Shown: positions 9,891 to 19,506, counted from the stretch's first letter. The stretch: 64,000 bases of DNA from a virus (IMGVR_UViG_3300029319_000003:1-64000), one strand, 5' to 3'. A program made the numbers and translations. The notes: generated by a model from the sequence alone, not told the origin.

Positions 9891-10448
9891 CTAGTAGTCT
9901 TGGATTGAATCATTTTCTTTGTCATAATAGGCAAATGGAATATCTGGATACTTATCCTTCATCCACTTAATCTCAAAACGTGGGGGTTGCTTAAGGTAAA
10001 CAACCTTTTGAACGTGCTTGAAGGGAATAGTGGTGCCCAAAGCATCCACTTGAGGATCGATGCCACTTCCAGAGCCAGCAGCAGAGTCTCGCATGGTCAC
10101 CCGAATCTCCGCTTCATTTGGCGCTGTTGGGTGCTGGACCGACCTAAACTCATAATTGCCGTCAGCAGCCAAGCCCGGTCCTTCAAGGACCAGCACCAGA
10201 TTTCCAAAGTTGCCACCTTTGACAACATCAAAATCTGTGGTAAGGGAGACGCCTTCTTGACCACCGCCGTGGCGGCTCTCTGCCTTATCGGTGATACCGC
10301 CTTCGTGTATCGAAGTAAATCTTGTAGGCTGGGTCGCGTGATAAAGTTCACCGGGAATCTCTGATGGCTGGAGCAGCCCAGCATCAGGGTCTTCCTCCAT
10401 TGTAGATTCCGTTAAGAACTTACGCCAGTTTTCAATTATAAGTTTCAT
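9891..10448 (-). CDS. ENWR-leader protein; ADP-ribosyltransferase-like domain
   Basis: Leader MKLIIENWRKFLTE; LYHAT...GVSLTTD...EAEIRV. Confidence 0.6.
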   Translation of the reverse strand: MKLIIENWRKFLTESTMEEDPDAGLLQPSEIPGELYHATQPTRFTSIHEGGITDKAESRHGGGQEGVSLTTDFDVVKGGNFGNLVLVLEGPGLAADGNYEFRSVQHPTAPNEAEIRVTMRDSAAGSGSGIDPQVDALGTTIPFKHVQKVVYLKQPPRFEIKWMKDKYPDIPFAYYDKENDSIQDY

Positions 10449-10460
10449 TGCCCGTTCCTT

Positions 10461-10916
10461 CTATACATTGTATGTTTTTTGCTTGCCGCCCTTGGAGGCA
10501 AAATTGTCTGTCTTAAAATCATCCTTACGCATAACTGTAATAATCTTCATGCTGTCTGGACCTTTTACCATGTTCAGTACAGCAATGACATTCAGCGCTG
10601 GCACGTTGCCAGACTTACCCTTCATGCGAATATGAAATGGCTCTTCGTTTGCCAACTCGCCGTTAGCATAGTCGTTCATAATCAAGCCCATTGCGCGATC
10701 TACTGCCTGAACAATAGAGTCTTTGGAAATCTTGCTGCCCTTGCCACCCTGCTTGTGACGGAAGCGCCGCTCCTCGCCATGCTTAGTGGGCTCCAAGTCT
10801 AAATCTTCAATGTCGATACGAACATTGCCAACCTTGATCATCTGACTTTGACCACCGAGATTCTTGTAGGACTCTTCCCCAAGATAACTCCTCCAGTTTT
10901 CCATAAGATTCTTCAT
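10461..10916 (-). CDS. ENWR-leader protein; RelE/DUF4258-like (BECR) RNase-like domain
   Basis: True start MKNLMENWRSYLGE at 10916; HGEERRFRH...IITVMRK. Confidence 0.5.
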   Translation of the reverse strand: MKNLMENWRSYLGEESYKNLGGQSQMIKVGNVRIDIEDLDLEPTKHGEERRFRHKQGGKGSKISKDSIVQAVDRAMGLIMNDYANGELANEEPFHIRMKGKSGNVPALNVIAVLNMVKGPDSMKIITVMRKDDFKTDNFASKGGKQKTYNV

Positions 10917-10917
10917 T

Positions 10918-11721
10918 CTACCAATCCTTGCAAGACCAGTAGCCTGCTGACAACTTGTCTTTCTTTTCATCGCAGTTGTGGCGGCTCCTAAAATTCTTCT
11001 TGCTGTCCTTGTCGTCGCTCTTGTTTTCCATCTTGGCATCACCAAAGCGGATGATCTTTTCCTTGTCACCATCGCAAGCCTTAACAACCTTCTGCTTCTT
11101 TCCGTAACCGGGTTCGCCTTCTTTGATATACCGAGGCGAGTTGCACTTCATGCGGTCCTTGTCTGTCTCTTCAAAGATGGTGTTCGTAAAGAGTGTGTTA
11201 ATTTCTTCTTTCTGAAGCATCTTCTTCATGCCCCTCTTACGGCTGGCTTCGTTTTCTTTCTCTACCTCATCGTCATACTTGTCCAAGACTTTGGCTTCGT
11301 CCTGCTGCGGTACACAATTTGGAACTTTGCCGCCGTCCTTGCCGGGTTTCATGCCAATCTGCTCATAGCCATCCTGACACGGATCATCTTCCCGCTTGTA
11401 CTTCGCCTCATCCACGTCCAAAGTTTCTGGATAGTCGTCGTCACCGGGCTTTGCTTTCTTTTCTCCCGATCCCGCTTTCATTCTTTTCTTCTTCGCGTGG
11501 ATGTTTGCCCACAGCCCCTTGTTCTTGCCTTCATCAACCTCGGGCTTGTCGTGCCCCCAGCCCTTCTTGTCAAGTTCGACATGCTGCTCATAGGTTTCGG
11601 CTTTCTTGCCTTCGCCCGTCTCAGGATCATACATCATGTGAGGCTCAAACTCCTCTTCTTCCTTAGACTTTTCCTTTTCTTCATTGACGAATCGTCGCCA
11701 ATTCTCCATCAAATGCTTCAT
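10918..11721 (-). CDS. ENWR-leader protein; mosaic of short repeated phage motifs
   Basis: Start MKHLMENWRRFVNE at 11721; GLWANIHAK, C.DGYEQIGMK...VPNCVP, IRFGD...FRSRHNC...YWSCKDW. Confidence 0.7.
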   Translation of the reverse strand: MKHLMENWRRFVNEEKEKSKEEEEFEPHMMYDPETGEGKKAETYEQHVELDKKGWGHDKPEVDEGKNKGLWANIHAKKKRMKAGSGEKKAKPGDDDYPETLDVDEAKYKREDDPCQDGYEQIGMKPGKDGGKVPNCVPQQDEAKVLDKYDDEVEKENEASRKRGMKKMLQKEEINTLFTNTIFEETDKDRMKCNSPRYIKEGEPGYGKKQKVVKACDGDKEKIIRFGDAKMENKSDDKDSKKNFRSRHNCDEKKDKLSAGYWSCKDW

Positions 11722-17230: not shown

Positions 17231-17247
17231 CGCATACTGTCATCCAT

Positions 17248-19005
17248 TTAAATAATATTTGCGAGGCGCATCAAGCGGTGGCGTAGTGCCTCCTGCTGTG
17301 CTGCGGCTTCTTCCTCGCCGCCGGCATCTTCAGCAGCGGCTTCGGCTTCAGCGGCTTTCGCCTCTTCCTCGGCGGCTTTCTCTTCTTCTTCTGCCTTCTT
17401 CTCTTCTTCTTCTGCCTTTGCCTTTTCCTCTTCTTCCTTCGCCCGCTCTTCGTCTTCCTTCTGACGCTCGGCTTCTTCGGCTTCTGCTTCGGCTTCCTCC
17501 GCTGCTTCTTCCTCTTCCTCGGCTGCGGCTTCTTCTTCTGCTGCCGCCTCCTCTTCGTCTGCCGCCGTTTCAGCCTCATCAGCCTCATCTTCAAGCGCAC
17601 CAGACAACTCACTGTTCGCCTTTTCGAACTCGGCTTCTAACTTCGATGCTTCATCTGCTGCTTTCTGGGCGTCTTTGAGAGCGTCCTGCTTCGACTTCAT
17701 GGCTGCTGCAAGATCTTTATCGAGTTGCATCGCATCCTTCGCAAGTTCGGCTTCAGTTGCCGCCAATTCTTGAGCAGCCTCGACAGCCTTAGTTTGAAGT
17801 TTGGCGGCTTCTTGAGCAGCCTTTACTGCCTCTTCCTTTTCATCGTTAGCATCAGCGGCGAGGTCTGCTGCGCTCTCTTTGTCCTTTCCCACCTTTTCAA
17901 CTTCCTTGTGGTACTTCTCTCTTTCCTTTGCAACGTCCTCTTCTTCTTTCGCTGCTGCTGATAAATCTTGAATTGCTTTCGATTTAGTCTTCGCGGCATC
18001 CGCTGCTTGAGAGTGGAGATCCGCTAAAGCCTGCTGCTCTTCTGGACCCTCGCCAAGCACACGCTTGATGTGGTCAATAGTTGTTCTGATAATACGCTCT
18101 TCAAGCGACTCTTTGTTCAATATGTGTGCGTACTTAGCCTCATCGTCCGAGTCCTGCTCACCGCGTTGCCAGCCACGCATGTAGTGCTCATCCTCTGGCA
18201 TTCTAGGTTCAGCAAATTTTGGATCTTCTCTTCTCTTCATAAACCATTGACCAGACTTTGCATAACGATCCTGCCAGCCCAGAACCTCAACATCATTCTG
18301 TGCCCACTTCAAATCCTTACATGCTTTGCACTCTGTGCCGTCTGGGTTCATCTTTTTCTTACCAAAGCCAAACAACTCGTTCATAGAGGGATTCCGTGCC
18401 ACCGTCAACACCCGTGGATCGTGGCGTGCTTGACCTCCACTGTCCCACATAACAAGAACAACCCCGGCAGCGTGATCGTGAGCCACAACCCTGCCTTGAC
18501 CACGCTCAGGTTCTTGGTCGTGTGTCACCCTGTCGCCAGTTCGTGGCAAGCCTGCACCCCCTTCGTGAATCTTGTTTCTTTTACGGCTCTCGCTGTACGT
18601 TGACTCAAAATCAAATTCGCCATCGTCTTCATATTCTTCTTCAGCATCAGGATCGGCAACTTGCTCGACCTCCAATCCATTCATCTTAGCCCACATCGCA
18701 ATAATTTTTTCAGTGTCTGCATCATAATAGTCCTCAAACACATTGCTGTCCCATCTTTGCATCCCACCTTGGTTTTTGCGCGGGTCTGCATTCACAGCCA
18801 TCATTCTATCAATCTGCTCTTCAGGAGCCCAGCCTCCGACGCCAGCGTCCACCAAGTCAAGCACCATCATGCCAAGGCTTTGATCTGCCTGTTCGCCTGA
18901 TTCGTCAAAGAATTGATACTGGTTGCCATAGCCGGTGTTGGACACCGAATACTTCATCTTGCCTTCTGTTAGATACTTTCTCCAATTCTCAAATAATAAC
19001 TTCAT
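17248..19005 (-). CDS. ENWR-leader protein; multi-module, long Glu/Ala coiled coil (scaffold/core-like)
   Basis: MKLLFENWRKYLTE; C-terminal half is E/A/K heptad-like; ends LRHRLMRLANII. Confidence 0.7.
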   Translation of the reverse strand: MKLLFENWRKYLTEGKMKYSVSNTGYGNQYQFFDESGEQADQSLGMMVLDLVDAGVGGWAPEEQIDRMMAVNADPRKNQGGMQRWDSNVFEDYYDADTEKIIAMWAKMNGLEVEQVADPDAEEEYEDDGEFDFESTYSESRKRNKIHEGGAGLPRTGDRVTHDQEPERGQGRVVAHDHAAGVVLVMWDSGGQARHDPRVLTVARNPSMNELFGFGKKKMNPDGTECKACKDLKWAQNDVEVLGWQDRYAKSGQWFMKRREDPKFAEPRMPEDEHYMRGWQRGEQDSDDEAKYAHILNKESLEERIIRTTIDHIKRVLGEGPEEQQALADLHSQAADAAKTKSKAIQDLSAAAKEEEDVAKEREKYHKEVEKVGKDKESAADLAADANDEKEEAVKAAQEAAKLQTKAVEAAQELAATEAELAKDAMQLDKDLAAAMKSKQDALKDAQKAADEASKLEAEFEKANSELSGALEDEADEAETAADEEEAAAEEEAAAEEEEEAAEEAEAEAEEAERQKEDEERAKEEEEKAKAEEEEKKAEEEEKAAEEEAKAAEAEAAAEDAGGEEEAAAQQEALRHRLMRLANII

Positions 19006-19253
19006 TTCTTTGATTCTCCAATTCCTAAAAATGCTTCAAAGCGAGAGGTCGCCTTGTTAATAACTTGCCTGCGGACACGCTCAACATCTTGTGGGTCGCC
19101 GGGGTTAACCTGCATTTTCATCATATATTGATCGATGTATTCATCGAGCGCTCGATTGAGGGCGTTCTCTGTGTCGGGATTGGCAAACTCATCGAGGGCT
19201 CTCGCTGTCTCCTCTTTGACAATCTCAATTAATTCTTTTCTACTGATTTTCAT
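19002..19253 (-). CDS. hypothetical protein with an MKIxxxELxxIVKEE-type N-terminus
   Basis: MKISRKELIEIVKEE; ATGA overlap. Confidence 0.7.
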   Translation of the reverse strand: MKISRKELIEIVKEETARALDEFANPDTENALNRALDEYIDQYMMKMQVNPGDPQDVERVRRQVINKATSRFEAFLGIGESKK

Positions 19254-19506
19254 TGTCCGACTTCTCCTCTTTTTCGGCGTCTAATGTCTTCTTGCTTTTC
19301 TTGCTATCGGGCAGGTGCTTCTCGATTCTAAACTTTAAAAGAGGCTTGCCGTTGATTGTCGGCTGACCGATTTCATCAGTACCAATCTCTTTCACCTCGA
19401 TTCTTTTATTTTTATATTTGCCGCCGAGCACAATATCGCCAACTTCAATGTCGAGGGTGATTGCCTCTTGCAAAAACCTTCGCCAGTTTTCCATTATCAA
19501 CTTCAT
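19240..19506 (-). CDS. ENWR-leader protein; small domain
   Basis: MKLIMENWRRFLQE; first gene of the cluster. Confidence 0.75.
   Translation of the reverse strand: MKLIMENWRRFLQEAITLDIEVGDIVLGGKYKNKRIEVKEIGTDEIGQPTINGKPLLKFRIEKHLPDSKKSKKTLDAEKEEKSDNENQ

Follow-up and report, generated by a model that had tools for sequence, protein, structure and literature searches.

The stretch analysed here (the window) comprises bases 1-64000 of a 184,187-bp viral genome (IMG/VR record IMGVR_UViG_3300029319_000003, rated 100% complete), and between positions 9891 and 19506 it carries ten minus-strand genes, here called P1 to P10, whose products begin with the same short leader peptide. The leader has a constant length of 14 residues and the consensus M-[KR]-x-[LI]-[MFI]-E-[NTQ]-W-R-x-[FY]-[LV]-x-E. 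Met1, Glu6, Trp8, Arg9 and Glu14 are identical in 10/10 copies, position 12 is Leu in eight and Val in two, and position 14 is also Glu in all 43 leaders of a wider alignment (43/43). An earlier note on this DNA had listed the ten leaders and named Glu6, Trp8, Arg9 and Glu14 as invariant; every leader was recovered exactly, and Met1 can be added to the invariant positions. A six-frame regular-expression scan of the window and the whole genome yielded ten matches, all with Met at position 1, and no leader beyond these ten anywhere in the 184,187 bp. A GGAG- or GAGG-like stretch lies 8-14 nt 5′ of each leader ATG. Four of the leaders are indeed masked, as claimed, in a mechanical list of open reading frames (ORFs) by longer TTG or GTG starts (ORFs 10461-11087, 10918-11742, 12062-12910 and 13892-14701).

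Past Glu14 the proteins are unrelated save for one pair of paralogues, as the note had also stated: P6 and P7 match each other at a blastp expect value (E) of 3e-35, and no other pair reaches E 0.01. Within the leader, Arg9 is encoded by all six Arg codons and Leu12 by five Leu codons, the synonymous codon differences between copies, summed over pairs, amount to 196, and DNA identity is 65%, versus 29% in the 30 nt upstream and 31% in the 18 nt downstream. Because of this codon spread and the near-random identity of the flanking DNA, selection acts on the leader peptide, as had been proposed from divergence at synonymous sites. The same codon evidence rules out a DNA-level repeat as the source of the likeness. 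It also effectively refutes, because of the six Arg9 and five Leu12 codons, the 196 synonymous differences and flanks at random-level identity, conservation of the nucleic acid as the border of a recombination cassette, as an element of translational coupling or as an mRNA element, despite two observations that would suit such an origin: the genes are translationally coupled, and relatives contain mini-ORFs made up of the leader alone, which suggest that cassettes are exchanged at this point. These mini-ORFs, 16-20 codons long and consisting of a leader followed by a stop (contig L037 near 2958, minus strand; L040 near 2925, plus strand), are probably what is left after cargo cassettes were exchanged or decayed at the leader. 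Among other candidates, a Sec or Tat signal peptide was rejected on reading the leader, which is charged and has no hydrophobic core.

Genes lie nearly all on the minus strand across the genome, and the ATGA overlaps at 19005, 14620, 13895, 13269, 12868, 12065 and 11721 point to tight translational coupling. The ten leader genes had been described as one ATGA-coupled operon; the coupling is there, but the operon does not consist of leader genes only, about seven of its genes having no leader (Table 1).

Table 1. Features of the leader operon, the head genes of the same genome and related proteins of Flavobacterium phage vB_FspM_immuto
Feature	Position	Strand	Description
Leader starts (ten)	10448, 10916, 11721, 12868, 13269, 13895, 14620, 15477, 19005, 19506	-	
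Hairpin, GGGGC/GCCCC then TTTT	19563..19584	-	between octamer and upstream gene (ends 19593); read from sequence
Octamer ACTAATTA	19543..19550	-	44 nt upstream of first leader ATG
P10, first operon gene	19240..19506	-	88 aa; leader 19465-19506, MKLIMENWRRFLQE; small beta-rich cargo
83-aa operon gene	19002..19253	-	different, second N-terminal helix, MKISRKELIEIVKEE
P9	17248..19005	-	585 aa; leader 18964-19005; C-terminal half long, very acidic, Ala/Glu-rich; isoelectric point (pI) of mature protein 4.5
Leaderless operon block	15477..17230	-	99 aa (DUF6356), 120 aa (precomputed Pfam label Acb5), 240/251 aa, 59 aa, 75 aa
P8	14617..15477	-	286 aa; leader 15436-15477; basic Lys-rich linker, then HEVTH (HExxH) motif
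P7	13892..14620	-	242 aa; leader 14579-14620; GNAT-like fold (model)
P6	13266..13895	-	209 aa; leader 13854-13895; paralogue of P7
P5	12865..13269	-	134 aa; leader 13228-13269; cargo matched no family
P4	12062..12868	-	268 aa; leader 12827-12868; HELVH (HExxH) motif
Leaderless 115-aa gene	11718..12065	-	ATGA-coupled on either side, between P4 and P3; HETIH (HExxH) motif
Octamer ACTATTTA	11757..11764	-	43 nt upstream of P3 start; may be a promoter within the operon
P3	10918..11721	-	267 aa; leader 11680-11721; cargo highly charged, Lys/Glu/Asp-rich
P2	10461..10916	-	151 aa; leader 10875-10916; sole basic cargo, pI 9.4
P1	9891..10448	-	185 aa; leader 10407-10448; ADP-ribosyltransferase-like fold (model)
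gp23-type capsid protein	genome 72815-74722 (outside window)	-	635 aa versus 521 in T4; PF07068, E 5.2e-62
Peptidase_S77 prohead protease	genome 81388-81984 (outside window)		PF03420, E 1.9e-36, above Pfam cut-off
Immuto proteins with related leader	L068 11731-12030; L068 18340-18567; L069 1803-2318		

The cargoes, that is, the parts of the proteins downstream of the leader, resemble few known families. Pfam, PHROGs and PADLOC searches with all ten returned nearly nothing, P3 matching just function-unknown PHROG families, and PDB sequence searches with P1, P4, P5, P6 and P8 found nothing under E 0.01. Matches below threshold comprised BrxC helical, PatG_D and Tox-MPTase3 for P4, Ycf2 for P10 and PbeC for P8. 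P1, which is without a Pfam or PDB sequence match, has few homologues, and His37, Ser68-x-Thr and Glu112-x-Glu114 are invariant in six of them. The top Foldseek matches of its AlphaFold model (predicted local distance difference test score, pLDDT, 66.7) all belong to the ADP-ribosyltransferase (ART) superfamily (Tpt1/KptA, DarT, NarE and scabin; E 6e-3 to 1), and with moderate confidence we assign P1 an ART-like predicted fold. P7 has more than 180 homologues and an AlphaFold model of pLDDT 87.6; Pfam gave no match for P6 or P7 and Foldseek no clear match for the P7 model, and all 50 of its 50 best VIA matches are GNAT proteins, at Z 4.7-6.4, which lies under the confidence level of the tool. 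On this model, a GNAT acyltransferase-like fold for P6 and P7 can likewise be proposed with moderate confidence. For the HExxH proteins P4 and P8, the leads are weak, whether to Tox-MPTase3 (P4, E 0.047, sub-cut-off), to SprT-like proteins or to LPD23. No family could be assigned to the remaining cargoes. The claim that the cargoes are enzymes holds at the level of the predicted fold for three of the ten (P1, P6 and P7) and not for the other seven. As a separate observation, a Lys/Gly-rich basic stretch ending in K-S-A-P-P-G-A is common to the P8 linker (residues ~45-80) and to the C-terminus of P0043, a homologue of the P7 family from the databases, and it may be a second mobile short motif.

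Two genes outside the window bear on the nature of the phage and of the leader. The prohead protease, of the Peptidase_S77 family, matches T4 gp21 (PDB 5JBL) at E 1.9e-20; its His81 and Ser134/135 align to the catalytic His and Ser, and both sites (H81 and S134/S135) are invariant in the alignment of S77 proteases (A5). The nearest cultured relatives of the gp23-type capsid protein are those of Flavobacterium phage immuto (47.7% identity), Microcystis phage Mel-JY01 and Rhodothermus phage RM378. Because of its S77 protease, its gp23-type capsid protein and the distance of these cultured capsid relatives, the phage is placed by its sequence among the distant ('far') members of the T4 superfamily. 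The lineage is known from marine metagenomes only, Tara samples included, and the look-ups of protein clusters returned marine metagenome sources. In the T4 record, the cleavage sites read MKTYQEFIAE/A for IPII and IPIII, ...SFLTE/A for gp23 and ...ELLRE/S for gp24 (slash, cleaved bond). The end of the leader, [FY]-[LV]-x-E, is the T4-type protease motif [LIV]-x-E with an aromatic residue at P4. The phage's own capsid protein has a predicted maturation site, KELLRE/YNS, after residue 59, which aligns to the T4 gp23 site after Glu65.

We consider it probable, from sequence and by analogy, that the leader is a propeptide which, like the capsid-targeting sequence (CTS) of T4, targets proteins to the capsid and is removed by the S77 protease. 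The leader would form a four-turn amphipathic helix, with M1, [LI]4, [MF]5, W8, [FY]11 and [LV]12 on its hydrophobic face and K2, E6, R9, R/K10 and E14 on its charged face, and a flexible linker would connect it to the cargo. Late in infection, it would dock the cargo on the scaffolding core of the assembling prohead, where the gp21-type (S77) protease would cut after Glu14, at [FY]-[LV]-x-E, and leave the mature protein free in the head, from which it would exit with the DNA at the next infection. For this last part, ejection of the cargo into the host and its action there as an effector, we put the chances at somewhat below even. In the AlphaFold models of P1 and P7, the leader is a helix of low confidence, detached from the confidently folded domain that follows it. 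A prediction of the complex from the S77 alignment (A5) and a 30-residue leader alignment (A1) scored 0.13 against a mark of 0.32 and carries no weight either way. The proposal of an address tag ending in a prohead-protease site is supported in part, through several independent but indirect lines of evidence: by an S77 protease with its catalytic His and Ser, by the [LV]-x-E end, and by the N-terminality of the leader, its head-module position in relatives and an upstream octamer, the last three of which are described below.

The leader extends far beyond this genome. A degenerate DNA pattern for M-E-N-W-R-x-F-L-x-E, scanned over IMG/VR and 596 Gb of cellular genomes, matched 56 IMG/VR contigs with 80 leader ORFs, in which the leader always lies within three residues of the N-terminus and the cargoes vary. 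The cellular genomes contained a single match, which is attributed to chance because it is internal to an unrelated bacterial protein. A profile built from 43 leaders and searched against 1.84 billion cluster representatives (threshold E<=1e-3) matched 1,122 protein clusters, whose origin is viral and not cellular. Such a profile scan had been suggested in the earlier note, and its matches to these varied clusters do not fall at random internal positions: of the top 149 hits, 131 have the leader at residue 1, and in most of the others it is no more than 27 residues away from a start that was probably called wrongly. Copies of the leader number 10, 5 and about 8 per genome. Pfam assigned almost no family to 82 cargoes from the profile hits, with single cases of pentapeptide repeats, NUDIX, DnaJ and few others. 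Among GenBank phages, the operon had no megablast match, and tblastn (E<=10) found nothing for P7, for the 244-aa leader protein of the head module or for a 20-aa leader query; at the sensitivity of these searches, no cultured phage with exactly the same leader was found. A full-text search for the motif strings retrieved no relevant paper, and the Pfam scan returned no family model of the leader.

About nine cluster representatives, as well as P0032, contain an internal second leader between two cargo domains, an arrangement that agrees with a processing site. P0032, P0127, P0129, P0150 and P0267 are single ORFs with the order leader, cargo, internal leader, cargo; in the internal copies the initial MK is replaced and ENWRxFLxE is intact. 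By their sequence, such ORFs could be polyproteins processed at the internal leader. These internal copies, and the protease-type motif at the end of the leader, would also suit a degradation or timing signal (an N-degron or protease-dependent activation), in which cleavage by the prohead protease or a host protease switches the proteins on or off late and no packaging takes place. However, some four residues suffice for a bare site, whereas conservation in more than 1,000 clusters covers all 14 positions and thus also the N-terminal MK-h-h-h-E half (h, hydrophobic), and the N-terminal half of the T4 CTS is its targeting part (PMC9026906). We regard a signal of this kind as very improbable.

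In the relatives, a capsid-targeting role for the leader gains from gene order. A leader gene lies within the head module in 31 of the 56 IMG/VR loci, with the conserved order terminase, portal, p282, p182, leader gene, protease, p187; some loci have it directly behind the protease. The S77 protease was found in 11 of 23 long leader-bearing contigs, which are fragments of large genomes, and in both complete ones, so that with the present genome all three complete genomes that have the leader also have S77. The cargoes in the head-module slot belong in 9 of 13 cases to one family, distantly related to P6/P7 (E 1e-5 to 1e-8), so the commonest leader protein of the relatives is a head-module resident; in the present genome, two paralogues in the distal operon represent this family. 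Pfam found no family for the relatives' head-module leader proteins or for the scaffold-like proteins. In T4, the corresponding region is that of genes 67, 68 and 22 for the prohead core, and this raises the question whether the leader might target the prohead and be cleaved while the cargoes are assembly or core components that are degraded or retained, rather than effectors delivered to the host. In keeping with a function of this kind, the P6/P7 family, which is the most widespread cargo, is conserved in relatives at a position flanked by portal-side genes and the protease, which in T4 is occupied by the core proteins (gp67, gp68 and gp22), and P9 has a long acidic, coiled-coil-like tail as scaffold proteins do. 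Nevertheless, the 1,122 clusters are diverse and mostly without a family, enzyme-like folds (P1, P6/P7) and HExxH motifs (P4, P8) occur among the cargoes, and the copy number varies; given this diversity, these folds and the varying number, accessory proteins fit better than an essential scaffold, and we consider core components an unlikely explanation of the cargoes as a whole.

Another N-terminal helix, M-[KE]-[IL]-[ST]-[KR]-x-x-L-x-x-I-[IV]-x-E-E (e.g. MKISRKELIEIVKEE and MEITRHRLKQIIKEELLRE), is shared by three proteins of this genome (the 83-aa operon gene, genome 87625-87894 on the minus strand, and a 243-aa ORF from genome 168586, also on the minus strand) and by two protease-flanking proteins of a relative (L060 4813-5157 and 5594-5950); immuto has N-termini similar to it, MKKSQLRQIIKEAL. 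From its distribution, this second helix may be another head-targeting leader.

The regulatory context of the operon was also considered. The octamer ACTANTTA occurs genome-wide 36 times on the coding strand versus 4 times on the opposite strand, with an expectation of about 15, and lies 28-76 nt 5′ of the baseplate wedge, head-tail adaptor-like, tail sheath and tail tube genes (PHROGs) as well as of a scaffold-like gene. Octamers of this class also stand upstream of the first leader gene and of P3 (Table 1). In the relatives, it is located within 100 nt upstream of 18 of 80 leader genes versus 1.6 expected (11-fold enriched). This distribution fits co-regulation of the leader operon with virion genes. 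The octamer is a candidate late promoter of the lineage and differs from the T4 sequence TATAAATA. The hairpin upstream of the operon looks like a terminator and, if it acts as one, would set the upstream limit of the operon. Between 8.5 and 21.5 kb, there was no enrichment of sigma-70-type promoters or simple terminators.

Several leaderless genes are interspersed among the leader genes. The 115-aa product encoded between P4 and P3 has hydrophobic segments and is the third HExxH protein of the operon. For the gene at 15864-16586 (minus strand), public calls begin 11 codons downstream of the longest ORF (240 versus 251 aa), and the start of the 240-aa form, MKLKEFKKINKNWDAWRESAALNE, resembles on reading a stretched, degenerate leader, MKL...NW..WR...LNE. 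The 120-aa product of 16576-16938 (minus strand) bears the precomputed Pfam label PF26761 (Acb5), which was not reproduced here; Acb5 is a family of signal sponges directed against the cyclic oligonucleotide-based antiphage signalling system (CBASS) (bioRxiv 10.1101/2025.07.12.664507).

A number of observations speak against a capsid-targeting propeptide. The residue after Glu14 is Glu or Asp at 72 of 159 sites, unlike the small P1′ residue of the T4 sites examined. The mature cargoes are mostly acidic, and T4 IPII and IPIII are, unlike most cargoes here, basic. The leader resembles the T4 CTS in pattern only (MK..hE, four extra residues, then F[IL]xE), which falls short of established homology, the promoter role of ACTANTTA is putative, and the phage is known from uncultured sequence alone. 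In addition, about 60 kb separate the leader operon from the head module, and the operon has small genes of the early type as neighbours and includes the gene with the unreproduced anti-CBASS (Acb5) label; this location and this gene would also fit an early counter-defence operon. Together with the fact that an amphipathic helix with a conserved Trp and Arg is a typical docking peptide, the distance from the head genes, the small early-type neighbours and the predicted anti-defence gene would also be understandable if the helix acted independently of the capsid, docking proteins on a common cytoplasmic partner (a host hub, a chaperone or a phage adaptor) or driving oligomerization. We judge this to be quite unlikely, as it leaves unexplained that 31 of 56 relatives have the leader gene in the head module, next to the prohead protease, the invariant terminal Glu in an [LIV]-x-E context that matches S77 specificity, and the virion-type octamer upstream.

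If the leader is a capsid tag, a simple sequence rule would identify the proteins with which these marine phages load their heads and which reach the host as infection begins. Proteins that arrive with the virion, T4 IPI* and Alt among them, are present ahead of any phage gene expression and difficult to detect without proteomics; IPI*, for example, blocks a restriction enzyme (PMC3012670). The tag would then provide a prioritized list of more than 1,100 scarcely annotated clusters for counter-defence and host-takeover screens. The packaging principle of T4 would reach far past the T-even phages with a different, longer leader, and a tag this short and portable could serve to bring foreign proteins into other capsids, a use to which the T4 CTS has already been put. 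The broadest form of the idea, that the leader is an address label marking every protein injected by an abundant, uncultured far-T4 lineage of the sea, is put forward only tentatively, and we would sooner doubt than accept it. On this view, each gene beginning with the leader would encode a protein that travels in the head and enters with the DNA, and the 1,100 or more clusters would be a large, unexplored catalogue of first-strike proteins for host takeover and counter-defence, with ART-like, GNAT-like, HExxH, pentapeptide-repeat and NUDIX proteins among them; the tandem leader-cargo proteins would be polyproteins split by the prohead protease within the capsid.

Outside the phage head, encapsulin cargo-loading peptides likewise send varied enzymes inside a shell of the HK97 fold by means of a short conserved peptide. 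Unlike the leader, however, this peptide is C-terminal and uncleaved, and neither DNA nor injection is involved. Polyvalent proteins of phages and conjugative elements combine ART, metallopeptidase and other conflict domains, and Iyer et al. reportedly proposed in 2017 that they accompany the DNA into the host and undergo processing by proteases; they are said to be single giant polypeptides, whereas here separate genes are tagged and fused only occasionally. In phiKZ-like giant phages (SPN3US, 201phi2-1), a prohead protease of the T4 type cuts proteins of the head interior at x-x-Glu, and paralogues such as SPN3US gp53 and gp54 share conserved N-termini (PMC5694885, PMC7411985). Most of their propeptides exceed 100 residues, and each protein has its own, in contrast to the single short tag found here.

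Immuto, the closest cultured relative by its capsid protein, has the same head-module layout and at least three proteins with a related leader (Table 1): two begin with MENFDLKKFLVEN, and one, of 75 aa and encoded directly after the protease, begins with MENNFDIHKWQAKFLKES. The immuto leader differs from ours in register and sequence and is present in only three copies in the 92 kb examined. A 360-aa immuto protein encoded just before the protease contains KEHFIAE/A, close to the ending of the T4 CTS. A literature search found no virion proteomics of immuto. This phage is a cultured system in which the leader idea can be tested.

The closest parallel is T4 itself, where the CTS is found on the internal proteins IPI, IPII and IPIII and on Alt (Mullaney and Black 1996; see the reviews PMC9026906, PMC3012670 and PMC5694885). 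Its ten residues suffice for packaging and are removed by gp21 (PMC9026906, PMC5694885), mutagenesis assigned residues 4 and 7 to targeting and 8 and 10 to processing (PMC9026906), and the internal proteins of T-even phages form a highly diverse set with the conserved CTS alone in common (PMC3012670, PMC9026906). The CTS has even been proposed as an evolutionary route for bringing various proteins into capsids (PMC9026906). Both the CTS and the leader are short N-terminal propeptides on otherwise unrelated proteins (cleavage of the leader being predicted), and both have an MK start, Glu6 and an aromatic-[IL]-x-Glu end, which in T4 is the gp21 site, although in peptides this short the likeness is one of pattern. 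Both phages have an S77 protease and a gp23-type capsid, and Alt, which T4 packages, is an ADP-ribosyltransferase, as P1 may be by its predicted fold. The leader has 14 residues versus 10, the extra N-W-R-[RK] amounting to about one helical turn, without detectable sequence homology, and ten leader genes share one coupled operon here, whereas in T4 the CTS was read on ipII and ipIII, to which the reviews add IPI and Alt. The earlier claim that no known system has such a cargo range was overstated, as the diversity of T-even CTS proteins is published, and with it the principle, known from T4, that a single leader serves a varied set of internal proteins; it stands for the sequence of the leader, the lineage and the scale. 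What is new, and unlike the T4 CTS, is a distinct 14-residue leader in an uncultured marine far-T4 lineage, with ten copies in an operon, a cargo range of more than 1,100 clusters that lack annotation, forms in which two cargoes are fused, and leader genes resident in the head module.

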